Part shown: positions 654 through 49,784 of the stretch, piece by piece | Position numbering within the stretch: the stretch's first letter is position 1 | Layout: the number at the start of each line of letters is the position of its first letter | DNA from: Candidatus Poribacteria bacterium | Lineage (GTDB): Bacteria; Poribacteria; WGA-4E; JAJDTR01 | Reading direction: 5' to 3' | DNA length: 64,000 nt | NCBI GenBank assembly: GCA_965220415.1 | Contig: OZ244829.1 | Span: forward strand, 2,799,483 to 2,863,482 | The notes under the pieces: model-generated | The model's input: only the letters and a program-made list of their open reading frames with translations | Database searches by the model: none | Told to the model about the DNA's origin: nothing | Program-made: the position numbers and the translations under genes

Positions 654-2843
654 ATGCAGAAAAGAAAAGCGATGTTATTCAAAACCTGCATTCTCTTGCT
701 CTCCATCCTGTTTTCACTCGACGCCCTCGCCCAAAACGCATCGCACTGGGGATTACCGGACGGCGCCAAAATGCGCTTGGGCAAAGGTCGAGTATCTCAG
801 ATTACGTATTCCCCGGACGGACTGCGGCTCGCGGTAGCGAGTACCATCGGGATTTGGCTCTACGATACGGCAGTGAATCAAGAAATCGCGCTATTCACCA
901 CGCATTCCTCCATCTTCACGTGCGTTGCGTTCAGCCCGGACGGAGAGACCCTTGTCAGTGGAACCTACGACGGGCAGATTCATCTGTGGGATGCGGCTAC
1001 GGGTGCACACATTCGCGCGCTTGAGAGGTTCTCGGGTCAAGTGGATAGCGTTGTGTTCAGCCCCGATGGAGAGACGCTTGCCAGTGGAAGTTGGGGCGGC
1101 AGCATCCATCTGTGGGATGCGGCTACAGGCGCGAAGATACAAACGCTTGAGGGGCAGAACTCTTGGATCAATAGCGTAGTGTATAGTCCGGATGGACGTA
1201 CTCTTGCGAATACGAGTTGGCTTGAAATTCGACTGTGGGATGCAAATACAGGTGTACACAAACGCACACTTGAAGGCCATAGGGCGGAAGTCAATAGTGT
1301 GGCATTCAGCCCGGATGGGAAGACGCTCGCGAGCGGGAGTTGGGACCGCACCGTGCGTCTGTGGGATGCGGCTACCGGGGCGCACCTCCGGACGCTTGTG
1401 GGACATACCGCTCTGGTCAATAGCGTGGCGTACAGTCCCGACGGCGAGACGCTTGCCAGTGCGGATTCGGAAGGCAACGTGCTTCTTTGGAATGCCGCAA
1501 CGGGAGCGCATCTGCGAACGCTCCAAGGACATATGTCTTGGACGAATGGCTTGGCGTACAGTCCGGATGGTCTGACGCTCGCCAGCGCAAGCCTGGATGG
1601 CGGCATTCGTCTATGGGACACGAACACTTGGGTGCAGGTATGGACACCTGCGGGATACACCGCCGGGATCAGTAGCACCGCCTACAATCCGGAGGGTTCG
1701 GCTCTTGCCACCGGAAATGAGGATGGCGCTGTTCATGTCTGGGATACGGTTACGGGTGCGCACATGCGAACGCTCCGAGGGCATACGGAGAACGTAACCC
1801 GCGTTGCATACAGTCCGGATGGCTTAATCCTCGCGAGCGGGAGCGAGGACTATACAGTCAGATTGTGGGACGCTGCCACGGGTGCGGGGGTTCGGGTACT
1901 TGAGGGACATACGGTAGATGTGACCTGTGTGGCGTTTAGCCCGGACGGATTGACGCTTGCCAGCGGGGACAAGGGCGGTAGCATCCATCTATGGAATGCG
2001 GTAACGGGGGCGCATGCACGGACGCTTGAGGGGTATGGGAGGGATATCAAGAGCTTGGTCTTCAGCCCGCATGGATTGACGCTTGCTAGTGGGGATAGGA
2101 GCGGAATCCGTTTGTGGGATGTGAAAACAGGTGAGCAACTGCCGATGCTTGAGGAGAGAACGCCTAGAGAACGTTCGTCGAGTGTACACAGCCTAGCCTT
2201 CAGCCCGGATGGTTCGACGCTTGCTGGTGGGGCGTTGGGCAAAATTCGTCTGTGGAGCGCGAATACAGGTACGCAACTGCGGACGCTTGAAGTGCGTACA
2301 TCCAAAGGATACACAGCTCAGGTAAATAGCCTAGCCTTCAGTCCGGACGGTTCGACGCTTGCCGGCGGGAGTGGGGGGTTGGAGGATGTTGTTCGTCTGT
2401 GGGATGCAGAGACCGGCGAACTGCTGCGTACGTTCAAGGGACACACGCTTGATGTTACGAGCGTAGCCTTCAGTCCAGATGGGCTGGCGCTCGCCAGCGG
2501 CAGCATGGACGGAACTGTCCTGCTGTGGGACGTGACCCCGTACACAAACCTCATTCGAGCAAGGGCGGCGGATGTCAATGCCGATGGAATCGTGAATATC
2601 CTGGATCTGGTGTTTGTCGCCGCTAATTTTGGACAGATGGGCCAAATTCGTGCGGATATCAACGGCGATGGGGTGGTGAACCTTCAAGATTTGGATCGGA
2701 TTGCCGAGGCGTTCGGAAACGCCGCCCCGTTTAGTCACGTGGATGGACATGATATCCTCACGGCAGAGGAGATAAGACTGTGGCTGGCTGATGCCAAGCG
2801 GTTAGAAACGGCAAATCCAGCCGTGCAAAAAGGAATGGAATAA
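654..2843 (+). CDS. Secreted WD40 beta-propeller repeat protein with a C-terminal type-I dockerin repeat pair
   Basis: RBS aaggag upstream of ATG 654 (track ORF starts at TTG 600). N-terminal signal peptide MQKRKAMLFKTCILLLSILFSLDALAQ. About 14 WD40 units with a recurring SPDG..LASGS...IRLWD pattern. C-terminus has two Ca-binding dockerin loops, DVNADGIVNILDL and DINGDGVVNLQDL. Confidence 0.85.
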   Translation: MQKRKAMLFKTCILLLSILFSLDALAQNASHWGLPDGAKMRLGKGRVSQITYSPDGLRLAVASTIGIWLYDTAVNQEIALFTTHSSIFTCVAFSPDGETLVSGTYDGQIHLWDAATGAHIRALERFSGQVDSVVFSPDGETLASGSWGGSIHLWDAATGAKIQTLEGQNSWINSVVYSPDGRTLANTSWLEIRLWDANTGVHKRTLEGHRAEVNSVAFSPDGKTLASGSWDRTVRLWDAATGAHLRTLVGHTALVNSVAYSPDGETLASADSEGNVLLWNAATGAHLRTLQGHMSWTNGLAYSPDGLTLASASLDGGIRLWDTNTWVQVWTPAGYTAGISSTAYNPEGSALATGNEDGAVHVWDTVTGAHMRTLRGHTENVTRVAYSPDGLILASGSEDYTVRLWDAATGAGVRVLEGHTVDVTCVAFSPDGLTLASGDKGGSIHLWNAVTGAHARTLEGYGRDIKSLVFSPHGLTLASGDRSGIRLWDVKTGEQLPMLEERTPRERSSSVHSLAFSPDGSTLAGGALGKIRLWSANTGTQLRTLEVRTSKGYTAQVNSLAFSPDGSTLAGGSGGLEDVVRLWDAETGELLRTFKGHTLDVTSVAFSPDGLALASGSMDGTVLLWDVTPYTNLIRARAADVNADGIVNILDLVFVAANFGQMGQIRADINGDGVVNLQDLDRIAEAFGNAAPFSHVDGHDILTAEEIRLWLADAKRLETANPAVQKGME

Positions 2844-2991
2844 GTAGATGGCGACTTTAAGAGTAAAAGCTGGATTCTACTTAATCCGATTCTAAATAAA
2901 GATCGTACACTACAGACTAAAAAATGTCAAAACTAGCTGGTGTATTTTCTAAAAATACATGGTAAGTGTTCGGTGCCGGTGCGGTTAGAAA

Positions 2992-3036
2992 GGGATCTCT
3001 ATCGCGTTCCTTATTCAGTCACTTGATCGCACCTAC
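2992..3036. repeat. REP family-2 element
   Basis: Sequence agggatctctatcgcgttccttattcagtcacttgatcgcacctac; ends in CCTAC. Confidence 0.7.
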
Positions 3037-3152
3037 CGGCGTGGTATAACGGTTTCTTGTGACAGTCTCGTAAGCATTAATTAGTTAGCGAATGAATCAC
3101 TAACTTTAGCCACTACGAAGATTTATAGCCTCAAAATGGGAGGAGACTGAAA

Positions 3153-3932
3153 ATGAAGTGGTTGATGGCAACGCTTATTTGCTTCTCTATTTTTCTGGAA
3201 AGTGCTTTCGGAACCAGTATTGCTGCCACGAAAGCATATATTGAAAATCATGCTTTGTTGAAAGCGATCGAAGGCAGTACATTGGTCGTCGTTGGCGAGG
3301 TTGTAGCCACACAGTTTGTATCCCGCAGTATAACCTTTGATGATTCGGTTAAGGACGCAACGACCGATGTAATAGTAGATGTCCAGACAGTTCTAAAAGG
3401 CAAACCTAACGCTGGCAAATCTACAGTGAAGTTTATGATTGAAGGTGGGAAGGGATTGAATCCAGAGACGGGCAAGATGACGCACACAAGGGTTGTCGGT
3501 ACACCTGAATTTTCTGTGGGAGAGCAAGTTCTATTGTTCCTAACAAATGATTCGAATCCGTTTTTTATGTACTATCCACATGACGGGTATCGCCTGTTTC
3601 ACAATGCTTACGGAAAAGTGGAAATCGAAAAGGGCAACGTCGAGTTGCTTTATTATACGGGAGACTATGAATTTGACACTCGACCAAGAGAAGATGGGTT
3701 AGAAAATCGCACATTCTTCGACATCAGAGTTGTTGTACTCCCATTGGATTTGGTTGTGAAGTTTAGCAAGGCACTTGCCAAAGATAAGAATGCTGCAATA
3801 AAGATAGAAAATGCTATCAAGAGTGTAGCAAAGAAAACGAAACGAAACGATAAAGTAGTCATATCTCCGAAGGGTCTGAAGACACTAGAACAAGCAATAG
3901 ATCGAGTTTTAACAAAAGTGGGAAAGTTTTAG
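3153..3932 (+). CDS. Hypothetical secreted protein
   Basis: RBS gggagga upstream. N-terminal signal peptide MKWLMATLICFSIFLESAFG. 259-aa ORF with no antisense competitor. Confidence 0.6.
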   Translation: MKWLMATLICFSIFLESAFGTSIAATKAYIENHALLKAIEGSTLVVVGEVVATQFVSRSITFDDSVKDATTDVIVDVQTVLKGKPNAGKSTVKFMIEGGKGLNPETGKMTHTRVVGTPEFSVGEQVLLFLTNDSNPFFMYYPHDGYRLFHNAYGKVEIEKGNVELLYYTGDYEFDTRPREDGLENRTFFDIRVVVLPLDLVVKFSKALAKDKNAAIKIENAIKSVAKKTKRNDKVVISPKGLKTLEQAIDRVLTKVGKF

Positions 3933-4077
3933 TCACTCTTATCTTCCGCATTATTGAGCACCTAAAAGTTTAATTTCTCGGTTGGCCGTATCCCGCATCA
4001 TAATTGACAGCACGCAATTATCCCTGTCGGAATAATCCTTTCCGCAAGTAACATTTACTAGTCGAAATCCTTTTCCT

Positions 4078-4145
4078 CGCTCCAGAGGAGCGCAATGTCA
4101 ATAGAATGCGACATGTCCAGAGTCCCGCGCTCCAGAGGAGCGCCA
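4078..4145 (+). terminator. Pair of identical GC hairpins (GCGCTCC-AGA-GGAGCGC), about 47 nt apart, downstream of 3153-3932
   Basis: cgctccagaggagcgc occurs twice, each followed by (c/a)atg. Possibly a terminator or small structured RNA. Confidence 0.25.
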
Positions 4146-4360
4146 TGTGGTGTGTTACTTGGTAAAATGAAGTTGACGATGGAAGGGCAAAACCGGTCAA
4201 TCAATCGGACTCACGGTAGTACCTCGGTGATTTTTGCCCATTTGGGGATATATACCCCAAGATTTTGTATGTGAAAATTTGAGATTGCACAAGTCTATTA
4301 TGCGGAAGATGAGTCACTAACTACTGAATCCGAAAAGGAATCATCGTTCTTGAACAATTC

Positions 4361-4687
4361 GTGGCGTCACCGACCGAGTCTCCGCGTCTTCCGACCGACA
4401 CAGCCTTACTGCCGAATTGCCCCAATCCGTTAAATCCGGAGACGTGGATACCGTATCAGTTGGCGGCGCCAGCAGTGATCGCGTTGGCGATTCATGATGT
4501 GCACGGTCGGGTGGTTGGGAGGTTGGCGGTCGGCTACCAGCAGGCGGGGGTGTATCGGAGCCGGGACCGTGTTGCGTACTGGGATGGACGGAATGAGCGC
4601 GGTGAACCGGTTGCCACAGGCGTGTATTTTTGCACGCTCGCGGCGGGAGATTTCAGGGCGACACGCAGGATGTTGGTCGGTAAGTAA
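4361..4687 (+). pseudogene. Orphan T9SS (Por secretion) C-terminal sorting-domain fragment, duplicated from the 3' end of the downstream WD40 gene
   Basis: 108-aa ORF starting at GTG that contains only LLPNCPNPLNPETWIPYQL...GVYFCTLAAGDFRATRRMLVGK. About 85% identical to the last ~95 aa of 4720-6990. No N-terminal domain or signal peptide. Confidence 0.5.
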
Positions 4688-4719
4688 ACTTCACGTTCGC
4701 CAGCGAGGCGAATTATTCG

Positions 4720-6990
4720 ATGAAAAGACACCTGTTTTTCGTAGTTTGCTTTATATTCTTGTCTGCTCTGTTTCTACCGAGCAGTTTTTCCCAAGATATT
4801 ACTCAGTGGGGGTTGCCCGCGGGCGCCAGAGCACGTCTCGGTAAGGGGGCGGTATCTGAAATCGCGTATTCGCCAGATGGTACGCGACTCGCGGTCGGGA
4901 GTAGCGTCGGTATTTGGCTCTATGATGCGGCTACCGGTACCGAAGTCAACCTTCTCACGGGGCATACATCATCGATAAGATCCATAGCGTTCTCGCCGGA
5001 TGGATTGACGCTTGCCAGTGGAAGTAGGGACAACACGATTCGATTGTGGGATGTTCGCACCGCTCGGCACCTACACATCCTGGAAGGGCATACGGATTTG
5101 GTCGAATCCGTCACGTTCTCACCCGACGGATTAACGATTGCCAGCGGAAGTTTTGACGGCAGCGTTCGACTATGGGATGTTCGCACTGGAGAAGGGCTGA
5201 AAATTCTTGAAGAACACCCGAATACGGTCAATTCCGTAGTGTTCGCGCCCCATGGATTAACGATTGCCAGCGCGAGTAATGAGGAGATTCGGCTATGGGA
5301 TGTGCGTACTGGGGAATTAAAGCAAATTCTCCATGGTCATCGGAGTACTGTCAATTCCATGGCTTTCTCGCGTGATGGGTTGAGGCTTGCGAGCGGAGAA
5401 AGTTACGACACGATCTGGTTGTGGGATGTTCGCACCGGGGCAGCCATGCATACCCTTGAGGGGCATTGGCGTTCGGTCAATTCGGTGGCGTTCTCGCCCG
5501 ATGGATTGACGATTGCCAGTGGAAGCGGGGACGCTATCAACGATGTCCCCGACAATACGGTCCGTCTGTGGGATGCCCGCTCTGGAGAAGCCCTGCAGAT
5601 TCTTGAGGGACATACGGCTCCGGTCGTATCGGTAGTGTTTTCGCCCGATGGATTAACACTCGCCAGCGCGAGCTGGGACGACACGATTCAGTTCTGGAAT
5701 GCCAACACTGGTGAACGCCTACACACGCTTTCTGGACATACGGGCGGAATTCGTTCCATGGTTTTCTCGCCAGATGGACTGACGCTTGCCAGTGCGGGGA
5801 GTTTCGGCAACACGATTCAGTTGTGGGATATCCACGATGGGAGGTATTCTCAGACCATTTCAGGGCATACAGGAGATGTTTATTCCATAGATTTCTCGCC
5901 TGACGGATTTACGCTTGCCAGTGGGAGTACTGATAATACGATTAGACTGTGGAATGTCTATACCGGCCGACACCTGCAAACCTTCGAAGGACATACGAAC
6001 TATGTCTATTCCGTAGCATTTTCCCCGGACGGAACCATGCTTGCTAGTGGCGGAGGTTGGCCAGACTACTCAATCCATTTGTGGGATGCTCGCGCCGGAG
6101 ATCGCCTGCAGACCCTTGAGGGACATATAGGGGAGATTTGGACTGTGGCGTTTTCTCCGGACGGATCACAGTTAGCCAGTGGAAGTGCGGACAGCACGAT
6201 TTGCTTGTGGGATGCCGGCACTGGTGCCCCTCTACGAACCCTTGAGGGGCATACGGGTACGGTCTATACTGTAACGTACTCGCCAGACGGGAGCACACTC
6301 GCCAGTGGAAGTGAGGACTACGCGGTTCGTTTGTGGGAAGTCCGCACTGGGAATCATCTACGAACCCTTGAGGGGCATACGGGTACGGTCCGTTCTGTAG
6401 CGTTTTCGCCCGATGGGTACACGCTTGTAAGTGGTGGAAGTTGGGACAATACGATTCGTTTGTGGGATACCCGAACTAGTGAAGGCTTGCAGGTCCTTGA
6501 AGGAAATACGGGTTATGTCACCTCTGTTGCATTCTCCCCTAACGGGCGCACGCTTGTTAGCGGGAGTTGGGGTTCAGCGATACTACTGTGGGATCTCAGG
6601 CGTGCCATGACTTGGGGAAGTATTAAGCGTGCAGTGGTCGCGGATGGGACTAGACATCCACGAGAGCTTGCTTCCTCCGTCGCTGATTCGACGCTGATGA
6701 CAACGGCGCTTCTGCCGAATTACCCCAATCCGTTCAATCCGGAGACGTGGATACCGTATCAGTTGAAGGAGGCGGCGGATGTCAGACTGACAGTCTATGA
6801 CGTGCACGGTCGGGTGGTTCGGACGTTGGCGGTCGGCTATCAGCCAGCGGGGGTGTATCGGAGCCGGGATCGCGCGGCGTATTGGGACGGACGGAATGAG
6901 CGCGGCGAATCTGTTGCAGCGGGCGTGTATTTTTGCACGCTCGCGGCGGGAGATTTTAGGGCGAGTCGCAGGATGTTGGTCGGTAAGTAG
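4720..6990 (+). CDS. Secreted WD40 beta-propeller repeat protein with a T9SS C-terminal sorting domain (Por_Secre_tail type)
   Basis: Signal peptide MKRHLFFVVCFIFLSALFLPSSFSQ. About 14 WD40 units. C-terminal NYPNPFNPETWIPYQL...YFCTLAAGDF motif. N-terminal ~45 aa after the signal are homologous to 654-2843. Confidence 0.85.
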   Translation: MKRHLFFVVCFIFLSALFLPSSFSQDITQWGLPAGARARLGKGAVSEIAYSPDGTRLAVGSSVGIWLYDAATGTEVNLLTGHTSSIRSIAFSPDGLTLASGSRDNTIRLWDVRTARHLHILEGHTDLVESVTFSPDGLTIASGSFDGSVRLWDVRTGEGLKILEEHPNTVNSVVFAPHGLTIASASNEEIRLWDVRTGELKQILHGHRSTVNSMAFSRDGLRLASGESYDTIWLWDVRTGAAMHTLEGHWRSVNSVAFSPDGLTIASGSGDAINDVPDNTVRLWDARSGEALQILEGHTAPVVSVVFSPDGLTLASASWDDTIQFWNANTGERLHTLSGHTGGIRSMVFSPDGLTLASAGSFGNTIQLWDIHDGRYSQTISGHTGDVYSIDFSPDGFTLASGSTDNTIRLWNVYTGRHLQTFEGHTNYVYSVAFSPDGTMLASGGGWPDYSIHLWDARAGDRLQTLEGHIGEIWTVAFSPDGSQLASGSADSTICLWDAGTGAPLRTLEGHTGTVYTVTYSPDGSTLASGSEDYAVRLWEVRTGNHLRTLEGHTGTVRSVAFSPDGYTLVSGGSWDNTIRLWDTRTSEGLQVLEGNTGYVTSVAFSPNGRTLVSGSWGSAILLWDLRRAMTWGSIKRAVVADGTRHPRELASSVADSTLMTTALLPNYPNPFNPETWIPYQLKEAADVRLTVYDVHGRVVRTLAVGYQPAGVYRSRDRAAYWDGRNERGESVAAGVYFCTLAAGDFRASRRMLVGK

Positions 6991-7087
6991 GGGTATTACA
7001 GGATTATGGAAAGCAGATTTGCGTTCCCTACGCGGTGGCAGCAGTCGATTCACGCTGCCGACGGACATGAAATGCAACAGAAAAGGC

Positions 7088-7109
7088 TGGTGCGCAATGC
7101 GCACCCTAC
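7088..7109. repeat. REP family-4 variant (GGTGCGCAaTGCGCACCCTAC)
   Basis: GC hairpin plus CCTAC; a sister copy lies at 12024-12046. Confidence 0.6.
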
Positions 7110-7413
7110 AGACTTGGAAATATACATATCGCGCGCTTAATGTTCAGTCGTTTGATCTCCTGCACAAAATCTGAACGATAATCCCGACTGTTGCACGATG
7201 CAGGGCACGGAAAACGACAATCCTGCCCTATCCGGTACGCTCAGTGAACGTACTTCGTCGAAATCTCCCATAAAATTGGACTTTCACTGATGGCACGTTC
7301 CTTGCTCTCCCTTTTGACTAATCCAACTAACAATCATCAAACCACGGACGGTGTGGAAAGGAATCTTCCATCCTTACCCCCTTCCATCCAATCTTAAACT
7401 CGGAGGACACATT

Positions 7414-9447
7414 ATGAAATTCAAGAAACTTTCCTGCGCATTAACGGCTTCGCTAATGTTACACACCGCCATCGTGTTGCTTATTGGCGCCTATTGGGTG
7501 ACGAAAACCCCACAGCCGAATGATTCGATGAGCATAGAATTCCTTTCGCCATTCCCCCCTCCTAAACCGAAAATGCGGAAAGCCGAGATGCTACCCGCGT
7601 TCACGCCGAAAAAAATCATCCAAGTGAAGGTAGCCATTCCTCGCGGAGGACTGGCTATGGAGGACGCGATAGGCGCGCAGCCATCGCCGCCCAGTGCCCG
7701 AAGACCCATACTTCCAATGAAGGCAGTTTCCAATTACCAACCGTCTTCGGTATTGGAGTTTTCTTCAAAGGCGGTTCGCATAGATTCCCCGATTGCGATG
7801 AAAATTCCAAAACAGAATGATTCGAGGAACGTAGAAATCCTATCGCCAATCGCGCCTCCTCAACGGAGAGCCCTGACGCAATCTGAGTCCGAGCCGCAAA
7901 AAATCATCCAAGTGAAGGTAGCCGTTCCTCGCAAAGGACTGGCTATGGTGGATGCGATAGGCGCGCAGCCATTGCAGTCGACAACTTTTTCCGCGAAGTC
8001 GCGTGCATCGGCGGTGCCGCTGGAATCGCTCCATCGAATGGCTCCCCAACTCAAACCGCCAAACGCTGCCGCCTACCCGGATATGTACTTCAAGAGCAGC
8101 GGCGTCAATCCCTTCCTTGATACGGAGGACGAACACCTTTCTACCTTTGCGATGGATGTCGACACGGCGTCGTATTCGGTTACCCGCCGATACTTGACGG
8201 AGGGGCACCTGCCCCCGTCGGAAGCGGTGCGCGTCGAGGAGTTCGTCAACGCCTTCAAATACGACTATGCCGCACCGACCGAAGGCGCATTCGCCATCCA
8301 CCTTGAGGGCGCACCGTCAATATTTTCCGATAGCAAGCGTACCCATTTACTGAGAATCGGATTGAAGGGCCGCGTGATTCCCGACGAAGACCGGAAAGAC
8401 GCAACCCTTACCTTTGTGATTGACGTATCCGGCTCAATGGAAATGGAAAACCGTTTGGGGCTGGTGAAGAGGTCGTTGAGGCTGCTTGTGGATCAACTTC
8501 GACCTACCGACAGAGTGGGCATCGTTGTCTACGGCTCTCAAGGAAGGCTGGTGTTGCCGCACACGGCAGTCAACCGACGCGCCGAGATTTTGACAGCCAT
8601 CGATTCCCTGTATCCGGGTGGATCGACCAACGCCGAAGAGGGGTTGCGCATCGGGTACGACCTCGCTTGGCGTAACTCGGAGGTCGATCACATCAACCGC
8701 GTGATTCTTTGCTCGGACGGTGTCGCCAATGTCGGTCAAACGGGACCGGAAGAGATCCTGAAGGAGATACGCGCCCATGTCAAGCGCGGAATCACATTGT
8801 CGACCGTTGGCTTCGGTATGGGAAACTATAACGACATCCTCATGGAGAAACTTGCGAATGCGGGAAACGGGAACTACGCCTATGTTGACACACTCAGTGA
8901 GGCGAGGCGCATTTTCGTGGAAGATTTGACGGGGACGCTGCAGGTCATCGCCAAAGACGCCAAGATTCAGGTGGATTTCAATCCGGAGGTGGTTAGTCGA
9001 TTCCGCCTGCTCGGTTATGAAAACCGTCACCTCGAAAACCACCAGTTCCGCGATGACTCCGTTGACGCCGGCGAGGTTGGCTCGGGTCACTGCGTGACCG
9101 CGCTGTATGAGGTCAAGTTGCACGAGGGAGCGTCCGGAAAAATAGCGACCGCTTCGATTCGTTACGCCGATCCCGATAGCCAGAAAGTCACCGAAGTTGG
9201 AGAAGACATCTTTTCATCGGATCTGCGCGAGTCGTTTGAGACGGCTTCCGCGCCGTTTCGCCTCGCGGCAGCCGTGGCAGAATTCGCCGAAATCCTGCGG
9301 GAGAGCTACTGGGCAAAGGACGGAAGTTTCGAGGACGTGCGCCGAGTGGTCAAGGGTGTCTTCCCGGAATTCGACAACGAACAGGTTGTCGAGTTAATCT
9401 ACTTGCTCGGCAAAGCTATCGAATACAAGGCGCAACTTGATTCGTAG
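7414..9447 (+). CDS. Membrane-anchored von Willebrand factor type-A protein (YfbK-like vWA plus DUF3520-like C-terminal region)
   Basis: RBS ggagga upstream of ATG 7414. N-terminal TM helix, then a Pro-rich linker. vWA motifs: MIDAS DVSGSM, VVYGSQ, STNAEEGL, ILCSDGVANVG. Conserved C-terminal region follows. Confidence 0.8.
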   Translation: MKFKKLSCALTASLMLHTAIVLLIGAYWVTKTPQPNDSMSIEFLSPFPPPKPKMRKAEMLPAFTPKKIIQVKVAIPRGGLAMEDAIGAQPSPPSARRPILPMKAVSNYQPSSVLEFSSKAVRIDSPIAMKIPKQNDSRNVEILSPIAPPQRRALTQSESEPQKIIQVKVAVPRKGLAMVDAIGAQPLQSTTFSAKSRASAVPLESLHRMAPQLKPPNAAAYPDMYFKSSGVNPFLDTEDEHLSTFAMDVDTASYSVTRRYLTEGHLPPSEAVRVEEFVNAFKYDYAAPTEGAFAIHLEGAPSIFSDSKRTHLLRIGLKGRVIPDEDRKDATLTFVIDVSGSMEMENRLGLVKRSLRLLVDQLRPTDRVGIVVYGSQGRLVLPHTAVNRRAEILTAIDSLYPGGSTNAEEGLRIGYDLAWRNSEVDHINRVILCSDGVANVGQTGPEEILKEIRAHVKRGITLSTVGFGMGNYNDILMEKLANAGNGNYAYVDTLSEARRIFVEDLTGTLQVIAKDAKIQVDFNPEVVSRFRLLGYENRHLENHQFRDDSVDAGEVGSGHCVTALYEVKLHEGASGKIATASIRYADPDSQKVTEVGEDIFSSDLRESFETASAPFRLAAAVAEFAEILRESYWAKDGSFEDVRRVVKGVFPEFDNEQVVELIYLLGKAIEYKAQLDS

Positions 9448-9532: not shown

Positions 9533-9720
9533 ATGGGATTTCTATCGCATTCGCTATCAAGATCTCTATCGCGCTTCCTATCCAGTCGCTTGATCTCATT
9601 TGATCCCGCTCTGGGGCTTAAATCTAGAGTGTTACTATACACCGTCCGCGCCGGTGGCGCTTTTAGAGGCTGGTAAGATCTCTATCGCCCTACTTAATCA
9701 GTCGGTTGATCGCACCCTAC
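9533..9720. repeat. REP family-2 cluster (multiple units)
   Basis: Contains gggatttctatcgcattcgctatcaagatctctatcgcgcttcctatccagtcgcttgatc, then a second copy ending cgcaccctac. Confidence 0.7.
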
Positions 9721-9763: not shown

Positions 9764-11662
9764 ATGAAATTCAAGAAACTGTCGGTCGCTTTATTGGCTT
9801 CGTTGATGACACACACCGCCATCGTGTTGCTTTTTGGCGCCTATTGGGTGACGAAAACCCCACAGCCGGATGATACGATCACTGTTGCATTTTTGTCGGG
9901 ACAGGCTCCCCCGAAACAAAAAATGCGGAAACCTGCCATAGCGGGCAGGGTTTCGGCAATTGGAACGCAGCCATCGCCGCACGCGGAACGCAGACCTCCC
10001 GTTGCGATGAAGGCGGTTTCCAATTACCAGCCAACGTCAGTGTTAGAGTTTTCCTCAAAGGTGGCACGCGTAGATTCCCCGATAGCGATGCGCGTAGACT
10101 CCTTGACGGGTTCACCGGCACCAACACCGGGAGCATCGAGATCGGATAATAACGCACCTTCCAACCTCAAACCACAGACCAGTTCAACACCCACAAATAT
10201 GGTCGCCGCGATGAATCGCGTATCGGCCGATGGACAGCAAGCCGCCTATCGACACGCTCCTCGACTGAAACCGCCAAACGCTGCCGCCTACCCGGATATG
10301 TACTTCAAGGGCAGCGGCGTCAATCCCTTCCTTGATACGGAGGACGAACACCTTTCAACCTTTGCGATGGATGTCGATACCGCCTCCTATTCGGTTGCAC
10401 GCCGGTACTTGGCGGAGGGGCATCTGCCCCCGTCTGAGGCGGTTCGCGTCGAGGAGTTCGTCAACGCCTTCAAATACGACTATGCCGCACCGACCGATGG
10501 CGCATTCGCTATCCATCTTGAGAGCGCGCCGTCAATATTTGCGGATAGCAAGCGTACCCACCTACTGAGAATCGGATTGAAGGGCCGCGTGATTCCCGAC
10601 GAGAATCGAAAAGACGCAATGCTTACCTTTGTGATTGACGTGTCCGGCTCAATGGAAATGGAAAACCGTTTGGGGCTGGTGAAGAGGGCGTTGAGGCTGC
10701 TGGTGGATCAACTTCGACCCACCGACAGCGTGGGCATCGTCGTCTACGGCTCTCAAGGAAGGCTGCTGTTGCCGCACACGGCAGTCAACCGAAGAGCCGA
10801 GATCTTGACAGCCATCGATTCCCTGTATCCGGATGGATCGACCAACGCCGAAGAGGGATTGCGCATCGGGTATGACCTCGCTTGGCGTAACTCGGAGGTC
10901 GATCACATCAACCGCGTGATTCTTTGCTCGGACGGTGTCGCCAATGTCGGTCAAACGGGACCGGAAGAGATCCTGAAGGAGATACGCGCCCATGTCAAGC
11001 GCGGAATCACATTGTCGACCGTCGGCTTCGGTATGGGAAACTATAACGACATCCTCATGGAGAAACTAGCGAACGCGGGGAACGGGAACTACGCCTATGT
11101 TGACACACTCAGCGAGGCGAGGCGCATCTTTGTCGAAGATCTGACGGGGACGTTGCAGGTCATCGCGAAAGACGCAAAGATTCAGGTGGATTTCAATCCG
11201 GATGTGGTTAGTCGATTCCGGTTGCTGGGCTATGAGAACCGATACCTCGAAAACCACCAGTTCCGCGATGATACCGTTGACGCCGGGGAGGTCGGCTCGG
11301 GGCACTGCGTGACCGCGCTGTATGAGGTCAAGTTGCACGAGGGAGCGTCCGGCAAAATCGCGACTGCCTCGATCCGTTACGCCGATCCGGATAGCCAGAA
11401 AGTCACCGAAGTTGGAGAAGACATCTTCTCATCGGATCTGCGCGAGTCGTTCGAGACGGCTTCCGCGCCGTTTCGCCTCACGGCAGCCGTGGCAGAATTC
11501 GCCGAGATCCTGCGGGAGAGCTACTGGGCAAAGGACGGAAGTTTCGAGGACGTGCGCCGGGTGGTCAAGGGTGTCTTTCCGGAATTCGACAACGAACAGG
11601 TTGTGGAATTGATTTACTTGGTCGGCAAAGCTATCGAGTACAAGGCACAGCATGATTCGTAG
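9764..11662 (+). CDS. Membrane-anchored vWA protein, tandem paralog of 7414-9447
   Basis: Identical start context ggaggacacattATGaaattcaagaaact. vWA and C-terminal regions about 90% identical to the upstream copy, with a divergent linker. Confidence 0.8.
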   Translation: MKFKKLSVALLASLMTHTAIVLLFGAYWVTKTPQPDDTITVAFLSGQAPPKQKMRKPAIAGRVSAIGTQPSPHAERRPPVAMKAVSNYQPTSVLEFSSKVARVDSPIAMRVDSLTGSPAPTPGASRSDNNAPSNLKPQTSSTPTNMVAAMNRVSADGQQAAYRHAPRLKPPNAAAYPDMYFKGSGVNPFLDTEDEHLSTFAMDVDTASYSVARRYLAEGHLPPSEAVRVEEFVNAFKYDYAAPTDGAFAIHLESAPSIFADSKRTHLLRIGLKGRVIPDENRKDAMLTFVIDVSGSMEMENRLGLVKRALRLLVDQLRPTDSVGIVVYGSQGRLLLPHTAVNRRAEILTAIDSLYPDGSTNAEEGLRIGYDLAWRNSEVDHINRVILCSDGVANVGQTGPEEILKEIRAHVKRGITLSTVGFGMGNYNDILMEKLANAGNGNYAYVDTLSEARRIFVEDLTGTLQVIAKDAKIQVDFNPDVVSRFRLLGYENRYLENHQFRDDTVDAGEVGSGHCVTALYEVKLHEGASGKIATASIRYADPDSQKVTEVGEDIFSSDLRESFETASAPFRLTAAVAEFAEILRESYWAKDGSFEDVRRVVKGVFPEFDNEQVVELIYLVGKAIEYKAQHDS

Positions 11663-13624: not shown

Positions 13625-13720
13625 GGATTTACTATGGAAGCTCTATCGCATTTGCTATCAAGATCTCTATCGCGCTCCTTATTCAGTCGCTTGATCGTTG
13701 TCCACTCGGTTGATTGATAG
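13625..13720. repeat. REP family-2 cluster
   Basis: Contains ggatttactatggaagctctatcgcatttgctatcaagatctctatcgcgctccttattcagtcgcttgatc. Confidence 0.7.
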
Positions 13721-15631: not shown

Positions 15632-17533
15632 TTAGAATTGATTTGCGACAAAGACCAAATCAATCACATTCACTACTCCATCCCCATTCACATCCCCCTC
15701 CAAATTATCCGTCCCGAACCCCCGCGCCACCAGCGTCAAATCCAAGATATTCACAATCCCGTCTCCGTTCACGTCCGCCGGATTCACCGGCGTCACCCGC
15801 AGATAAATCTCGCCGTCAAGGTTGGGGAGCGTGTGCTCCGTCCCTACGTGGCTGCTCGCCACACCCTGCACCTCCTCCGGCAGCGTAATCACCTTCGGCT
15901 CGCCGCTGTGGTTGTGCACCGCCCACCCGTTCGTGTATTCACGGATGTAAAGACCTAGAATATTTTCGTCATAGAGTTGCGATTTTGGCCCTACCGGCTT
16001 GCCCAAATCTGCGTCCCAAAAGTCGTACCAGTTGTGGTGGTTACTTATGAATTTGCTAAAAAGAAAATAGCCGTCTGAATAAGTCAGGCTCATTGTCGTG
16101 ATAGCTCGCATCCACCGAAGATTCGCTGGACTATCAAGTGGTTCGGTCGGGATTGCGTGACCTTTAAGAGCGTTAGTGCGAGGTTCTCGTGTGTTGGATT
16201 CTAACCACCTCAGCGATTCCTCCGCTCTACCTAACCAGTATACAGCTTCATCCTCGGTCAGGTCGCCGGGCACGGGTGTCTCCATCCAGCTTCCGTTCAT
16301 GTGCATGTGTGAACTTGGCAATGAATGTACATTGGTGTTCCCCATTATTATAAAATTGGGGCGAACGGCTTGGCGAATACGTCTAAGAATGTTTTGCCGG
16401 GCGTGGGTCTGCGCTTCTATCGATACGTAGTTTTCAAGGACGTCGCGGCCATCGCGCCAATAGTCAAAAAATATGCCATCGTATAGACCGCACTTCGACA
16501 CGGCCACAGCTTGCTGCACAATTCTGTCCTGCACCTCGGGCTGCGTAAAATCGACTAAATAAGCGCCGGGCCATTTACTGACGCGTTCACCGTTGGCGTC
16601 CCGTATCCAATAGGGCCAATCCTCCGGGGCTTCGTGATCCCAGTACTCACGCATTCTGATATCAACGAGAAATATCATATTGGGATTGATTGCATGGAAT
16701 TCGTCGCGCCTGAGTATCGCCTCATCTAGGCTGCCCCTAATCTTAAACCCATGAGATGTCCCATCCAAATCTAAACCAAATTGTGGAACGCTAAACCACA
16801 AATCATGACTTGCCAAGTTCGCAATGTCTGATGAATCAGGACGATTTAACGTGCGAATCCAACCGGGACCGCCCCACGCAGCGATTAGGGATGGGTACGT
16901 TCGATTGTTCACCCGTGGCTCTAGCGGTAGTGACGGCAGAACGCACGTTTCATCGTATTTATAGTCCCGTAAAGACAATTCATCGAGTGGGGAATGGTCG
17001 CCAATTTTATTGTCCATGAGGTTCAGCACTTCTAACCGTGTCAAATTAGCAAGTGGACGAACATCGCCAATGTCGTTGAATCTAAGTAGTAACTCGATGA
17101 GATTCGTCAATCCAGCGAGTGCACTGATGTCGTCAATGCGATTATAACTGAGATCAAGATATCTCAACTCAGTTAGATTCGTAAGTGGGCTGATATCGGT
17201 TATTTCGCAGTGCCACGCGAAAAGCCAGCGCAACTTGGTTAAGTTAGCCGCGGGTGTGAGGTCGGAAATCGGATTTCGGGCTAACTCGAGATATTCGAGG
17301 TTTGTTGCGAACTCTAAGCCAGTAAGGTCGGTTATTCCGCGGTTACGCGCGTCAATTCTTACGACGTAAAGCATGGCAGCCCGGTTGATGGGAAGGTGCT
17401 CGGGGCGTTGAAGGGATTCGTGGATGGCGGCGCGGAGGTTGGGGTCGGGAATATCGACAACCTGCGCAAACGCAACGCTGCCCAAAACCAAATAGAGCCA
17501 AAGATATAGTGCTATTTTCTGTCCGAAATTCAT
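15632..17533 (-). CDS. Secreted leucine-rich-repeat protein with a TIM-barrel glycoside-hydrolase-like central domain and a C-terminal type-I dockerin pair
   Basis: RBS gggagg upstream of ATG 17533. Signal peptide. LRR units (LTGLEFATNLEYLELARNPISDL...). Central AVSKCGLYDGIFFDYW region. C-terminal DVNGDGIVNILDL / DVNGDGVVNVIDL. Confidence 0.8.
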   Translation of the reverse strand: MNFGQKIALYLWLYLVLGSVAFAQVVDIPDPNLRAAIHESLQRPEHLPINRAAMLYVVRIDARNRGITDLTGLEFATNLEYLELARNPISDLTPAANLTKLRWLFAWHCEITDISPLTNLTELRYLDLSYNRIDDISALAGLTNLIELLLRFNDIGDVRPLANLTRLEVLNLMDNKIGDHSPLDELSLRDYKYDETCVLPSLPLEPRVNNRTYPSLIAAWGGPGWIRTLNRPDSSDIANLASHDLWFSVPQFGLDLDGTSHGFKIRGSLDEAILRRDEFHAINPNMIFLVDIRMREYWDHEAPEDWPYWIRDANGERVSKWPGAYLVDFTQPEVQDRIVQQAVAVSKCGLYDGIFFDYWRDGRDVLENYVSIEAQTHARQNILRRIRQAVRPNFIIMGNTNVHSLPSSHMHMNGSWMETPVPGDLTEDEAVYWLGRAEESLRWLESNTREPRTNALKGHAIPTEPLDSPANLRWMRAITTMSLTYSDGYFLFSKFISNHHNWYDFWDADLGKPVGPKSQLYDENILGLYIREYTNGWAVHNHSGEPKVITLPEEVQGVASSHVGTEHTLPNLDGEIYLRVTPVNPADVNGDGIVNILDLTLVARGFGTDNLEGDVNGDGVVNVIDLVFVANQF

Positions 17534-17621
17534 TGATTCCTCCCTTTGACTTGAAACCAATCTTGATGACCAATCAAGATGGAATCCCGTTCTATCCCTT
17601 CACTGAATTCTAATCCGCGAT

Positions 17622-19391
17622 TCAGAATTGATTCGCCACAAACACCAAATCAATCACATTCACAACCCCATCTCCATTCACATCCCCCTCCAACCTATCC
17701 GTCCCTAAATCTCGGGCAATAATCGTCAAATCTAGAATATTCACCACACCGTCCCCATTGACATCCGCCGGATTCTTCGGTTTCACCCGCAAATACATCT
17801 CCCCGTCAAGGTTTGCCAGCGCGTGCTCCGTGCCGGCTAATCCGCTCGCAACCCCCTGCACCTCCTCCGGCAGCGTGATGACTTGGTGATCGCCGCTGTG
17901 GTTGTAGACAGCCCAGCCGTTCGTGTATTCCCGGATGTAAAGCCCTTCTATCTCTTGATACAGTTGCCGCTTCCCCCCTACCGGCCTTCCTAAATCCGCA
18001 TCCCAGAAATCGTACCAGTAATGATGATGTCCCCCGCGTCCGTCCACAAATAGTACATATCCGTCCGAATGAGTAAGGCTCATCGTCGTAAATACACGCA
18101 TCCAGCGAAGATTTCGTCGACTATCTGGCGGCTCGTCCGGGAATCCCCATCCTTCTAGCGCGTTGATTCGTGGTTCCCTGAGATTAGCTTCTAGCCACGA
18201 CAGCGTAGCTTCGACTTCAACTAAACCATTTTCCACTTGTACTCTTCCGCCCTCCCTATCGTCAATCGATGGCGATAGCGTTTCCATAAATCCGCCGTTT
18301 AGATAGTCTGCCGAACGTGGAATTGTGTGACGATTCACGTTACCGAGAATGAGAAATTCTGGGCGCGTATTAGCGCGTATGGCGCGCACAATATTGAGCA
18401 TCGGCCCAAACCAAGCATCGGGTTCGCCTTCGATGTCGTCCCAGTGATCAAAGAAAAGGCCGTCGTACAGACCACACTTGGAAACGGCGATAGCTGCCTG
18501 AATGACGTCGCGCTCCCAACCTGGCGTAATTGGCACGGTAATCTCAAAAAGACGTATAAAATAAGGATTTTTGGATAAAAGCTCTTCGCGTTCGCGCCGG
18601 GCAGCGGCAGTATTGCCAACTATGGCGTTGCGCGAGCGGCTATAACGCATAATGTTGGCAGGACGAAACCACATATCATGATGCGTGATGTTATCTACCC
18701 ACTGTAGTTCATCCCTATTTACTATGCCTCCCCATGCAGCGAACACAGAGGGATAATTCCTGCCATCAATTCGTTCGCCTAGCGGCAGCGGTGACATATC
18801 GCACACTGCGTCGTAGACCAATTCCTCAAATGGCTGTGCCAACAGGCTTGTGTAATTAATAGCAGGATTGTTGAGGATATGCAACGTGCTTAATTGCGGG
18901 CACCGAGCAAGTGGGTCAACGTCGACAATCTGATTATGATCTAGATTCAGCCACTTTAATTCCGGGAGTGTGGCAAGTGGCTCAACGTCGACAATCTGAT
19001 TCTCGCGCAAATCCACCCATTCCAAACGGGGTAGATGAGATAAGGGGCCGAGGTTTCCAATTCGGCACTTAGCGGCATTCAATCCTTTGAGTTTTCGAAG
19101 TGAAGCAATCGGAGCGAGGTCTGATATAGGATTTCCCCAAATGCTTAAATGCTCCAAGGACTGCGCGAATTCTAGTCCACTCAGATTTGTCACGCCACGC
19201 TCGTATGCATTCAGCCGGGTCAGACGCGTTAAGTCTGTGCGATCAAGAGGCAGGTCTGTTGCTACGTTAAGTGCTTCGTGTACCGCCATACGAAGATTCG
19301 AGTCGGGAATGTGGACAACCTCCGCAAACGCAACGCTGCCCAAAACGATAGTGAGCAAAAGACTCAGTGTGATTTTCTGTCGAAAATTCAT
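17622..19391 (-). CDS. Secreted LRR / hydrolase-like / dockerin protein, tandem paralog of 15632-17533
   Basis: RBS ggagggg upstream of ATG 19391. Same domain order as 15632-17533. C-terminal ~150 aa nearly identical to that gene (...GDVNGDGVVNVIDLVFVANQF). Confidence 0.8.
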   Translation of the reverse strand: MNFRQKITLSLLLTIVLGSVAFAEVVHIPDSNLRMAVHEALNVATDLPLDRTDLTRLTRLNAYERGVTNLSGLEFAQSLEHLSIWGNPISDLAPIASLRKLKGLNAAKCRIGNLGPLSHLPRLEWVDLRENQIVDVEPLATLPELKWLNLDHNQIVDVDPLARCPQLSTLHILNNPAINYTSLLAQPFEELVYDAVCDMSPLPLGERIDGRNYPSVFAAWGGIVNRDELQWVDNITHHDMWFRPANIMRYSRSRNAIVGNTAAARREREELLSKNPYFIRLFEITVPITPGWERDVIQAAIAVSKCGLYDGLFFDHWDDIEGEPDAWFGPMLNIVRAIRANTRPEFLILGNVNRHTIPRSADYLNGGFMETLSPSIDDREGGRVQVENGLVEVEATLSWLEANLREPRINALEGWGFPDEPPDSRRNLRWMRVFTTMSLTHSDGYVLFVDGRGGHHHYWYDFWDADLGRPVGGKRQLYQEIEGLYIREYTNGWAVYNHSGDHQVITLPEEVQGVASGLAGTEHALANLDGEMYLRVKPKNPADVNGDGVVNILDLTIIARDLGTDRLEGDVNGDGVVNVIDLVFVANQF

Positions 19392-19442
19392 AAATTTCCC
19401 CTCCAAATCCACGGAATCCTTTGATTCGTACCCTTGACCTCT

Positions 19443-19677: not shown

Positions 19678-21051
19678 TCATGGCAACAACCCGTCCGGCG
19701 CTTCGATCAGCCCCTTCAACTCCCCGAGGAACCGAGCACACGGCGCGCCGTCAATCGCCCGATGGTCAAAGGTGAGAACCAACGTCCCGATATCCCGCGC
19801 CACAATCGACTCTCCCGCGAACACGGCAACCCGCCGCACGCGCCCCACACCGAGAATCGCGCACTGCGGCGGATTGAGCACCGGCGTGAACCAGTCCACG
19901 CCAAGCCCGCCGAGGTTGGTGACGGTGAACGTGCCGTCCGCATAATCGTCAACTCGCAGCTTCCCCTCGCGCGCACGCTCCGCAAGCGACCGCACCTGCG
20001 TTGCAATCTCCACGATGCCGAGTGCGTCGGCGCCTCGGATAACCGGCACCACCAAGCCGTCCGGGATGTCGACCGCGACGCCCAAGTTGACATCACGATA
20101 CTGGTGCACCGCCCCGTCAATCAGCGCCGCGTTGAGCCGGGGATGCGCTTTCAACGCCTCGGCGGTGGCTTTCAGCACAAAGTCGTTGATTGTTGGAGCC
20201 ACGCCGTGGGTTTGGCGCCATGCCTCTTCGTTCACCCCGCGAAGGTTTAGGATGGCGCTGAAATCGACTTCGATGCCCTCCGTAACGTGCGGCGCTTGCG
20301 ACCAAATCGTGCCGAGCCGTTCTGCGGTCGTGCGGCGGATGCCGCTAAGCGGAGTGACTTCAACCTCTGATGTTGGTTTCTCGTCAGCCGGTTTTTCCGG
20401 ACGCGCCGCGCCGGTGTCGATAGCGCGTTGCACATCCTCCTTGGTCACCCGTCCGCCAGGACCCGTGCCAGCGAGCGATTCGGCATCTATATTGTGCCGT
20501 TCCGCGAGCCGCTGTGCCACCGGCGTCACACGCGACCCCGAAGGTTTATCTGCCATCGAACTTCTGGATTGCTCCACGGTGCTGGCTGGAGTCTCTTGTG
20601 CAGCCTTTGCCGGCGCCGCCCCGCCCGAGTCGATGGCGCGCTGTACATCCTCCTTCGTCACCCGTCCGCCCGGTCCAGTGCCGGCGAGCGCCTCGGCGTC
20701 TATATTGTGCCGTTGCGCGAGTCGCAGCGCCACCGGAGTCGCACGCGACTCCGCAGGCTGAGCGGCGGCTGGGGTTTTGGGGGCAGCCGCGGGGGCGTCC
20801 GGCACCGCCTCGCCCTCCTCGCCAATCCACGCCAAGGTTTCGCCGACATCGTACTCGCCATCGGCTTGGCCCACGATGCGCAGCAGCACGCCGCTCACCG
20901 GCGACTCCACCTCGACGACAGTTTTGTCTGTCTCAATCGAAACCAGGGGTTGCCCCTCTTCAATTCTGCTCCCTTCGGCGATGTGCCACTCGACGACGCG
21001 GCCCGTTTCCATGGTGTGACCAAACGCCGCTAGACGGAACTGTACTGCCAT
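19678..21051 (-). CDS. Dihydrolipoamide acyltransferase (E2 component of a 2-oxoacid / pyruvate / acetoin dehydrogenase complex)
   Basis: N-terminal lipoyl domain (ETDKTVVEVESP). Two tandem peripheral-subunit-binding domains (TPVA.RLA.RHNIDAE.LAGTGPGGRVTKEDV). C-terminal catalytic domain with DHRAIDGA. Confidence 0.9.
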   Translation of the reverse strand: MAVQFRLAAFGHTMETGRVVEWHIAEGSRIEEGQPLVSIETDKTVVEVESPVSGVLLRIVGQADGEYDVGETLAWIGEEGEAVPDAPAAAPKTPAAAQPAESRATPVALRLAQRHNIDAEALAGTGPGGRVTKEDVQRAIDSGGAAPAKAAQETPASTVEQSRSSMADKPSGSRVTPVAQRLAERHNIDAESLAGTGPGGRVTKEDVQRAIDTGAARPEKPADEKPTSEVEVTPLSGIRRTTAERLGTIWSQAPHVTEGIEVDFSAILNLRGVNEEAWRQTHGVAPTINDFVLKATAEALKAHPRLNAALIDGAVHQYRDVNLGVAVDIPDGLVVPVIRGADALGIVEIATQVRSLAERAREGKLRVDDYADGTFTVTNLGGLGVDWFTPVLNPPQCAILGVGRVRRVAVFAGESIVARDIGTLVLTFDHRAIDGAPCARFLGELKGLIEAPDGLLP

Positions 21052-21100
21052 GACTTCTCCTTTCCTGCGATGCGCATAGATGCGATGTCGGAAAATCCTC

Positions 21101-23199: not shown

Positions 23200-23288
23200 A
23201 GAAGCGATCAAACGAATGAACAATGACTGCGACAACCTTATGTAGGGTGGGATCAAGCGACTGAATAAGGAGCGCGATAGAGATCCCC
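23200..23288. repeat. REP family-2 element (reverse orientation)
   Basis: Contains gtagggtgggatcaagcgactgaataaggagcgcgatagagatcccc. Confidence 0.7.
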
Positions 23289-26832: not shown

Positions 26833-26878
26833 AGGGATCTCTATCGCACTCATTATCCATTCGCTTGATCGCACCTAA
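26833..26878. repeat. REP family-2 element
   Basis: Sequence gggatctctatcgcactcattatccattcgcttgatcgcacctaac. Confidence 0.7.
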
Positions 26879-49682: not shown

Positions 49683-49784
49683 GGTAACCTCTCTATTCCC
49701 CAGCGCAATCGCCCCCGAGTCTAGAGGTGTAAAAATCTGCAATTATCAAATCGAATATGGAATCCTCTTTGCTCCCGACAGGAA

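Follow-up and report, generated by a model that had tools for sequence, protein, structure and literature searches.

A stretch of 64,000 nucleotides from the genome of a Candidatus Poribacteria bacterium (assembly GCA_965220415.1, contig OZ244829.1, positions 2,799,483 to 2,863,482), here called the window, holds near its start part of a tandem array of secreted proteins with 14 WD40 blades. One gene of this region, gene A, has very probably been split. Originally, it would have encoded a complete C-terminal cassette, in which a type-I dockerin, a linker, and a C-terminal domain (CTD, ~93 amino acids, with a coding end of ~280 bp) follow one another, and an insertion of 1,496 bp would then have landed in the linker. 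Such a composite cassette is the usual tail in the phylum (see below). An earlier note on this DNA had described the same locus as two paralogues with swapped sorting modules, gene A ending in a dockerin and the neighboring gene B in a CTD of the kind known from type IX secretion systems (T9SS), together with an orphan CTD encoded by a short open reading frame (ORF C). What looks like a module swap and a CTD duplication is in our reading an ordinary insertional split, and the locus should be annotated as a single disrupted gene.

Evidence for a split gene

Gene A (654 to 2843, forward strand; 729 amino acids from the ATG at 654) encodes a signal peptide, 14 WD40 blades, a type-I dockerin, and the first half of a linker. 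Gene B (4720 to 6990, forward strand; 756 amino acids) encodes a signal peptide, 14 WD40 blades, a short dockerin-less connector (RRAMTWGSIKRAVVADGTRHPRE…), and a CTD (6709 to 6987). The proposal that the two are paralogues with signal-peptide-like N-termini, a homologous N-terminal segment, and about 14 blades was borne out. Both start with a basic-then-hydrophobic leader, share the segment (H/Q)WGLP.GA..RLGKG.VS.I.YSPDG, and agree at 48% of 654 aligned residues. With 14 xLWD-type repeat ends, each sequence is consistent with two 7-bladed propellers, and the Pfam WD40 model (PF00400) scores 409 bits on gene A and 491 bits on gene B, with 13 stretches detected in each. The dockerin pair proposed for the end of gene A was recovered as well: scanned alone, the tail matches Dockerin_1 (PF00404) with 37 bits (cut-off 22.9) and contains two DxNxDGxVNxxD loops. 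By tblastn, this dockerin lies at 2568 to 2732 (forward strand), with the calcium-binding loops DVNADGIVNILD and DINGDGVVNLQD. It is followed at 2733 to 2836 by the first half of a dockerin-to-CTD linker (…ILTAEEIRLWLADAKRLETANPAVQKG), which fits the linker consensus of intact cassettes (…LTxxDVxxWLxxAxxLxLTDxxSxQRGIxFLEQLLxxLxPKETALL), and the frame then closes with two foreign codons (ME) and a stop that come from the insertion.

ORF C (4361 to 4687, forward strand) starts with GTG and encodes 108 amino acids. Upstream of this GTG no stop interrupts the frame until 4325 to 4327, and its translation there, IRKGIIVLEQFVASPTESPRLPTDTALLPN…, corresponds to the second linker half; homology to the family extends 5' of the GTG, in frame, as far as that stop codon. 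We place the severed 3' end of gene A at 4328 to 4687 (forward strand), with the second linker half IRKGIIVLEQFVASPTESPRLPTDTALL, a CTD at 4406 to 4684, and ORF C as the portion after an internal GTG. Joined in silico (…QKG of gene A followed by IIVLEQF…), the two parts give a protein of 842 amino acids, and its alignment with single intact genes of three other Poribacteria genomes spans residues 1 to 842. Identity is 79.4% to L003 8435-10975 (846 amino acids), 75.2% to L002 5628-8165 (845 amino acids), and 66.5% to L001 2167-4686 (839 amino acids), and in each of these orthologues the dockerin, the linker, and the CTD lie within one gene. The window and the relatives also agree in gene order, with an A-type gene followed by a B-type and then by a VWA gene: in L002 the A-type gene ends at 8165 and a dockerin-less B-type gene begins at 8225, and in both L001 and L002 the VWA gene is found a few kb past the WD40 array, as in the window.

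The insertion occupies positions 2837 to 4332 and is flanked by two copies of a 9-bp target duplication (AAAAGGAAT), at 2828 to 2836 on the left and, from DNA comparison with the orthologues, at 4333 to 4341 on the right. The window DNA reads …GTGCAAAAAGGAAT up to the foreign DNA and, 1.5 kb further on, …CCGAAAAGGAATCATCGTTCTTGAACAA…. In orthologue DNA the homologous target site occurs once (CAAAAGGGAATCATTGCACTTGAACGA in L001); L001, L002, and L003 each have a single site and belong to species other than that of the window. Since the joined frame aligns end to end with intact orthologues and the target site is single-copy in them, ORF C is very probably the 3' end of gene A itself.

The alternative of the earlier note, in which sorting modules were swapped, two export and anchoring routes are in use, and ORF C is a recent copy of the gene B CTD, seems very improbable to us, although parts of it rest on sound observations. 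As annotated, gene A does have a dockerin and no CTD, gene B a CTD and no dockerin, and CTD ends do move between paralogues. The 85% identity given for ORF C and the gene B CTD also stands as a DNA figure (85.3% over 278 nt, 4409-4686 versus 6712-6989), but not for the protein, where identity is 81% over the 93-amino-acid CTD and 75% over all 108 residues. A recent copy, however, would not account for the three orthologues with both modules in one gene, nor for the dockerin-type linker half encoded 5' of ORF C, which is not found in gene B. The 9-bp duplication, together with the single-copy orthologous site, points to an insertion and not to a duplication. Among the CTD copies compared, the one nearest to ORF C is that of L003 11291-13789 (88%), not that of gene B.

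In all likelihood, the severed end is a piece of a pseudogene in decay. A signal peptide is missing, and its CTD scores 20.5 bits with TIGR04183, under the cut-off of 23. We scored its decay at those CTD columns that show at least 95% conservation: among the 137 CTDs compared it has the most deviations (four), including an F-to-L change in the NPFNPETW motif, and gene B has none. A further change in the same motif, Y to C, sits in a column below the 95% threshold. The missing signal peptide, the score below the cut-off, and the conserved-column deviations fit relaxed constraint, and they count against a functional stand-alone CTD protein (a decoy, a chaperone-like, or a regulatory partner) kept by selection after the split, which we consider unlikely. 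In favor of such a protein, no stop interrupts the frame in either the window or a second strain (locus L084, database protein P0011), and many short CTD-only proteins do exist in the protein database. Yet no clear ribosome-binding site precedes the GTG at the customary spacing, the family homology continues 5' of it, and in L084 the 3' part of the ORF is simply the CTD of gene B after a deletion (see below). As for the short database entries, those inspected begin inside dockerins or linkers, like fragments, and the listing of homologues comprised only proteins of ~230 amino acids or less.

Strain comparison also bears on the integrity of the contig. The sequence probably comes from a metagenome-assembled genome, and the insertion (~47%) has a lower GC content than its flanks (~55%), as might be expected of a chimeric contig. 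The same left junction was, however, found in L083 (ERZ23495317) and L084 (ERZ23495235), which are independent assemblies of different samples with strain-level differences, so that an assembly or binning artefact is exceedingly improbable.

The insertion and its nested elements

The insertion ends with GGAATAAGTAGATGGCG… and …CACTAACTACTGAATCC, and its termini (GGAATAAGTAG… and …CTACTGAATCC) form a weak terminal inverted repeat. It carries a single ORF of 259 amino acids (3153 to 3932, forward strand) with a signal-peptide-like N-terminus, for which no Pfam or NCBIfam match was found. Among 5.8 billion proteins this ORF has five homologue clusters in all, and its AlphaFold2 model was unusable (pLDDT 43). 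Homologues of ~50% identity occur in L080 (2349-5329) and L081 (2324-8283), where hypothetical genes form a conserved cluster, with a gene for a BBP2 (PF07642) outer-membrane protein after it. A fragment of a DDE_5 transposase is found 1.3 kb downstream in L080.

The two strains also resolve the structure of the insertion. L083 matches the window at 2673-3937 (98.4% identity) and then at 4312-4446, and L084 matches it at 659-2938, 3099-3937, and 4312-4686. Since both alignments skip 3938-4311, and that of L084 also skips 2939-3098, these segments are nested pieces, and the insertion would have received at least two small elements after its arrival. The larger one is a 374-bp element resembling a miniature inverted-repeat transposable element (MITE; 3938 to 4311), with 20-nt terminal inverted repeats (3938-3957 and 4294-4313) and a 7-bp AGTCACT duplication (3931-3937 and 4312-4318); L083 and L084 are empty sites for it, with one AGTCACT each. 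Its center contains two CGCTCCAGAGGAGCGC hairpins, akin to short stretches in L002, L003, L043, and L055. The smaller piece, ~160 bp at 2939 to 3098, is missing in L084 and holds one copy (2976-3038) of a dispersed repeat described with the other features of the window.

The truncated gene A is an intact ORF in both the window and L084. Given that the insertion is 98% identical between strains, as against 91% for gene A, an independent or recent transfer of the insertion was considered as well. It was rejected: in a sliding-window comparison, gene A is, between strains, a mosaic of tracts of 96-100% and patches of 79-87% identity, as gene conversion would produce where the background identity is ~98%.

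The insertion may have arrived by transposition in trans or by illegitimate recombination. A 9-bp direct duplication of the target is the classic footprint of DDE transposition, and the region attracts small elements with terminal inverted repeats and target duplications, of which the nested 374-bp element with its empty site is an example. Both points speak against a DNA circle with AAAAGGAAT having integrated illegitimately or through microhomology, or the action of a site-specific recombinase, possibilities which we hold to be somewhat unlikely, even though homologues of the carried ORF sit in ordinary chromosomal clusters and the features of a transposon are scarce. The latter is one of several observations that weigh against our account of the locus. 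The insertion has no transposase, its sole ORF belongs to no family, and its terminal inverted repeat matches at only ~9 of 11 bases. No second copy of it was found in the window, in the 79 related loci (see below), or in the JGI metagenomes (where its left end was scanned), so that transposition is here a candidate route. JGI metagenome scans likewise gave no uninterrupted allele of the same species, that is, no empty-site junction. Finally, the frame of the relic is still open over 119 codons, and a 108-amino-acid ORF was called at the same place in the other strain (P0011, L084), so that some residual function is conceivable.

The C-terminal cassette across Poribacteria

To place the two modules in the phylum, relatives were fetched with the last 129 residues of gene B as query, using one genome per species; at least 578 matches were confirmed, of which 79 loci were kept. 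The species representatives do not include the genome of the window, for which the best match among them was at 76%. The protein-database listing of homologues contained only short proteins, and architectures were therefore counted on ORFs from six frames of the 79 loci and the window, searched with profiles for the CTD and the dockerin that were derived from these sequences. The Pfam and NCBIfam cut-offs were 22.9 bits for PF00404, 27 for PF13860, 27 for PF18962, and 23 for TIGR04183. Cohesins were searched with an ad hoc profile built from four Pfam-confirmed cases of PF00963.

A dockerin was present in 102 of the 143 CTD-bearing ORFs, and in nearly all of these 102 its end is separated from the CTD by 53-69 residues (mode 58). 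The CTD reaches the last residue in nearly all 143 ORFs, and a crude rule assigned signal-peptide-like N-termini to 84 of the 120 complete ones. The co-occurrence is no selection effect, since the query used to fetch the loci contained no dockerin. An artefact of the ad hoc hidden Markov models was ruled out too, given that Pfam detected both PF00404 and PF13860 above threshold in all 10 sampled proteins, with Cohesin (PF00963) directly upstream of the dockerin in four of them. The usual tail in the phylum is thus (cohesin)-dockerin-helical linker-CTD, and since dockerin and CTD are joined in one polypeptide at a fixed spacing, they are parts of one tail, not alternatives. The suggestion of swapped modules serving two export routes fails on this count, as it does on the orthologues of gene A, which have both. 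For one cassette (P0015, 98 aligned sequences), AlphaFold2 gave a model with pLDDT 85.8 and pTM 0.69, in which a helical hairpin (residues 80-92 and 98-118) stands between the dockerin helices and a beta-sandwich (138-216).

With the ad hoc model, 46 cohesin ORFs were found in the 79 loci, 40 of them in the order cohesin-dockerin-linker-CTD. The earlier note had inferred an organism with dockerin/cohesin machinery, and this stands for the phylum but not for the window, where no cohesin is encoded. Proteins with two or three cohesins are encoded in L074 (8252-10312), L010 (14571-16199), L013 (5618-10288), L040 (5639-10288), and L050 (7784-10288), and they look like small scaffoldins: that of L074 combines three cohesins with a dockerin and a CTD in 686 amino acids, and another of this set consists of two cohesins alone (542 amino acids). 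WD40 repeats are combined with a cohesin in the database proteins P0154 and P0172. The passengers of the cassette include leucine-rich repeats (LRR), WD40, Ig-like domains (Big_9, He_PIG, fn3, LTD), VWA with an LDL-receptor-type propeller, and a trypsin-like protease.

Besides that of gene A, four more dockerins of the window pass PF00404. A protein with LRR, GHL15 (putative glycosyl hydrolase-like), and a C-terminal dockerin but no CTD is encoded at 15632 to 17560 (reverse strand). Its paralogues at 17622-19412 (reverse strand) and 60238-62109 (forward strand) end exactly with the dockerin, also without a CTD, and the three are natural dockerin-terminal proteins and candidate clients of cohesin-bearing proteins. 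A further cassette gene runs off the end of the window (62902 to 64000, forward strand), with LRR, two Ig domains of the Big_1/invasin type, a dockerin, and the first part of the conserved linker (…LTARDVREWLTQAQELDVMDATSRRGV); presumably, it continues into a CTD.

Gene B and the exchange of CTD ends

The lack of a dockerin in gene B is not the result of a recent swap. Dockerin-less relatives occupy the same position in L001 (8087-10390, 58% identity) and L002 (8225-10390, 55%), arrays of such genes are found in L004 and L005, and further genomes also have the connector RRAMTWGSIKRAVVADGTRHPRE… (P0007, P0012); gene B therefore represents a conserved, established dockerin-less subtype.

Similarity among the CTDs is out of step with the orthology of the propellers. 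The propeller body of gene A (residues 1-600) is mostly 78-98% identical to the genes at L003 8435 and L002 5628, apart from one 60-residue block at 62-65%, and in the same sliding comparison its cassette is about equally similar to all paralogues. The relic CTD is 88% identical to that of L003 11291-13789 and 74% to that of the gene A orthologue, which in turn is 91% identical to the CTD of gene B. L084, another strain of the same species, provides a further case. There, the relic CTD is fused to the CTD of gene B and the DNA downstream of it (L084 8001-8891 against window 4312-7539, with L084 8049-8891 corresponding to window 6712-7539). As the relic CTD runs directly into this downstream DNA, gene B was deleted in L084 by recombination between the two CTDs, which act as 85%-identical repeats. 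In the database protein P0009 (173 amino acids, on two contigs), a signal peptide, the N-terminal segment, and the first WD40 blade are joined straight to the CTD (…FYDTTTFQETALLPNYPNPF…), the whole propeller having been deleted.

Turnover of the family is fast and proceeds via recombination, with CTD-coding ends homogenized or exchanged among neighboring paralogues. The shuffling of the sorting module that had been proposed for this locus does take place, but ORF C is very probably not a duplicate of the gene B CTD. As substrates of recombination, the conserved CTD-coding ends help explain the rapid copy-number turnover of the arrays.

Identity of the CTD and the question of export

Profile searches support in part the assignment of the gene B tail to the T9SS type. 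TIGR04183 scores 24.4 bits, just above its cut-off, but PF18962, also at 24.4 bits, stays below its own; FlgD_ig (PF13860) reaches 39.6 bits and CHU_C 22.2. Across 10 of 10 family members, TIGR04183 scores 26.7-39.3 bits and is matched over positions 2-71 of 72. In a Foldseek search against the PDB, FlgD Ig-like domains came first, followed by PorU (6za2), PorZ (5m11), and CTDs of substrates in complex with the T9SS translocon (8glk_D, from a SprA-PorV complex, TM score 0.70; 8gl8_D, TM score 0.62), and a sequence search of the PDB returned FlgD at 6e-7 and a T9SS CTD at 0.098. The poribacterial motifs YPNPFNP and GVYFYTL and the basic C-terminal strand resemble motifs B, D, and E of T9SS CTDs.

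All 79 related loci belong to Candidatus Poribacteria, and relatives in the protein database are named [quoted passage not shown]. In the NCBI taxonomy, the phylum is placed among the candidate phyla, outside any superphylum and so not in the Fibrobacterota-Chlorobiota-Bacteroidota (FCB) group. An FCB-group-like T9SS organism, as had been suggested, is not what these results indicate. Kamke et al. 2014 (PLoS One, PMC3909097) described a TIGR04183-type domain on poribacterial eukaryote-like proteins, "especially WD40 repeats". They reported no Por structural genes in their poribacterial single-cell genomes, which are incomplete, and stated that the secretion pathway "remains to be revealed"; dockerin and cohesin are never mentioned there. 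Our search, which covered the open literature, found no report tying Poribacteria to dockerin or cohesin, and on Poribacteria and the T9SS only that study was relevant. The disrupted gene itself belongs to a known class of poribacterial WD40-CTD proteins; what appears to be new is that, throughout the phylum, the CTD has a fixed link with dockerin and cohesin.

A sequence of events can be proposed from these data. The insertion would have hit the linker of a gene A with the full cassette, duplicated the 9 bp AAAAGGAAT, and introduced a stop after two codons, leaving a WD40-dockerin ORF (654-2843) and a linker/CTD relic (4328-4687) with neither its own start nor a signal peptide. Intact cassette proteins would cross the inner membrane via Sec, and the CTD would direct passage of the outer membrane, surface attachment, or both, through T9SS-like or still unknown machinery. 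The dockerin might bind cohesins of sister cassette proteins, cross-linking WD40, LRR, and Ig-like proteins into a surface coat. The members of such a network would be CTD-anchored cohesin-dockerin proteins along with dockerin-terminal ones, namely the products of the three LRR-GHL15-dockerin genes and, if it is expressed, truncated gene A, which would then be without a CTD, like the natural dockerin-terminal proteins of the window.

That a phylum-wide cassette exports eukaryote-like repeat proteins into a self-assembling, cellulosome-like coat, with CTD machinery other than the canonical T9SS, is a tentative suggestion that we would put no higher than a possibility. No T9SS component (PorK/L/M/N, SprA/Sov, PorV, PorU) and no cohesin is encoded in the 64 kb analyzed, which counts against the model of CTD export and cohesin-dockerin docking in that neither the export machinery nor the docking partner of this genome was found. 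How sponge-symbiont Poribacteria export and display eukaryote-like repeat proteins has been an open question since 2014 for lack of T9SS genes. In most cases the T9SS-like tail turns out to be joined with a dockerin, and in many with a cohesin as well, from which a non-covalent network at the surface, made of WD40, LRR, and Ig-like proteins, would be predicted. The suggestion of machinery other than the canonical T9SS, if true, would amount to a new route of outer-membrane export or anchoring, coupled to cohesin-dockerin assembly, in a diderm symbiont.

Other features of the window

Downstream of gene B, two tandem paralogues (7351-9447 and 9764-11662) are 80% identical to each other and combine vWF_A, VWA, and YfbK_C domains with an N-terminal membrane segment; L001 and L002 have related genes a few kb past their WD40 arrays. 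The reverse strand at 19678-23052 encodes an operon for a 2-oxoacid dehydrogenase (E1 alpha, E1 beta, E2). Three consecutive genes on that strand (44630-46225, 46851-48401, and 48501-49742) encode AAA_15 / AAA_21 ATPases of AbiEii/OLD-like families and may form a defense island.

A dispersed intergenic repeat with the core GGATCTCTATCGCnnnCCTTATTCAGTC is present in seven copies in the window (2993-3020, 9676-9703, 13661-13688, 23259-23286 on the reverse strand, 26835-26862, 57836-57863, and 59278-59305 on the reverse strand), where none would be expected by chance. It is also found in many Poribacteria loci, at times in tandem (L084 8420-8510). The repeat has no match in Rfam, nor did the Rfam scan of the whole-window annotation return any, and it may be an element similar to repetitive extragenic palindromic (REP) sequences.

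Comparison with known systems

The disruption of gene A resembles those caused by insertion sequences and MITEs in its 9-bp flanking duplication, and the nested 374-bp element has the 20-nt inverted ends, the 7-bp duplication, and the empty sites usual for them. In contrast to these, the outer insertion carries a gene for a secreted protein, has weak inverted ends and no transposase, and no other copies of it are known.

The WD40-TIGR04183 proteins of Kamke et al. 2014 (PMC3909097) come from the same phylum and represent the same phenomenon. That study describes neither the fixed dockerin-linker-CTD cassette nor the form of it with a cohesin, and neither the gene split nor recombination between CTD ends. 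Type A cargo of the T9SS of Bacteroidota (RgpB, PorU, and PorZ of P. gingivalis; F. johnsoniae) likewise has an N-terminal Sec signal and a C-terminal Ig-like beta-sandwich of ~90 amino acids. The poribacterial CTD, however, is closer to the FlgD Ig-like domain in sequence and fold and has a dockerin and a helical linker attached to it, and Poribacteria stand outside the FCB group with no reported T9SS genes (PMC3909097).

With the cellulosomes of Clostridia such as C. thermocellum and R. flavefaciens, the poribacterial proteins share the PF00404 module, a type-I dockerin with a duplicated calcium-binding loop-helix, and the PF00963 module, and those with two or three cohesins and a dockerin resemble small or adaptor scaffoldins. 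They differ from them in that Poribacteria are diderm, that their passengers comprise WD40, LRR, Ig-like, VWA, and protease domains and not mainly carbohydrate-active enzymes, that cohesin and dockerin are usually adjacent in one polypeptide, and that the presumed anchor is a T9SS-like CTD instead of an SLH domain or a sortase signal; binding between the modules is here a prediction. Outside cellulosomes, cohesins and dockerins reportedly occur across bacteria and archaea on proteins that have no part in degrading plant cell walls, sometimes both in one protein. Compared with such non-cellulosomal modules (Peer et al. 2009, FEMS Microbiol Lett), those of Poribacteria are combined, throughout the phylum, with a CTD of the secretion type in one fixed cassette.

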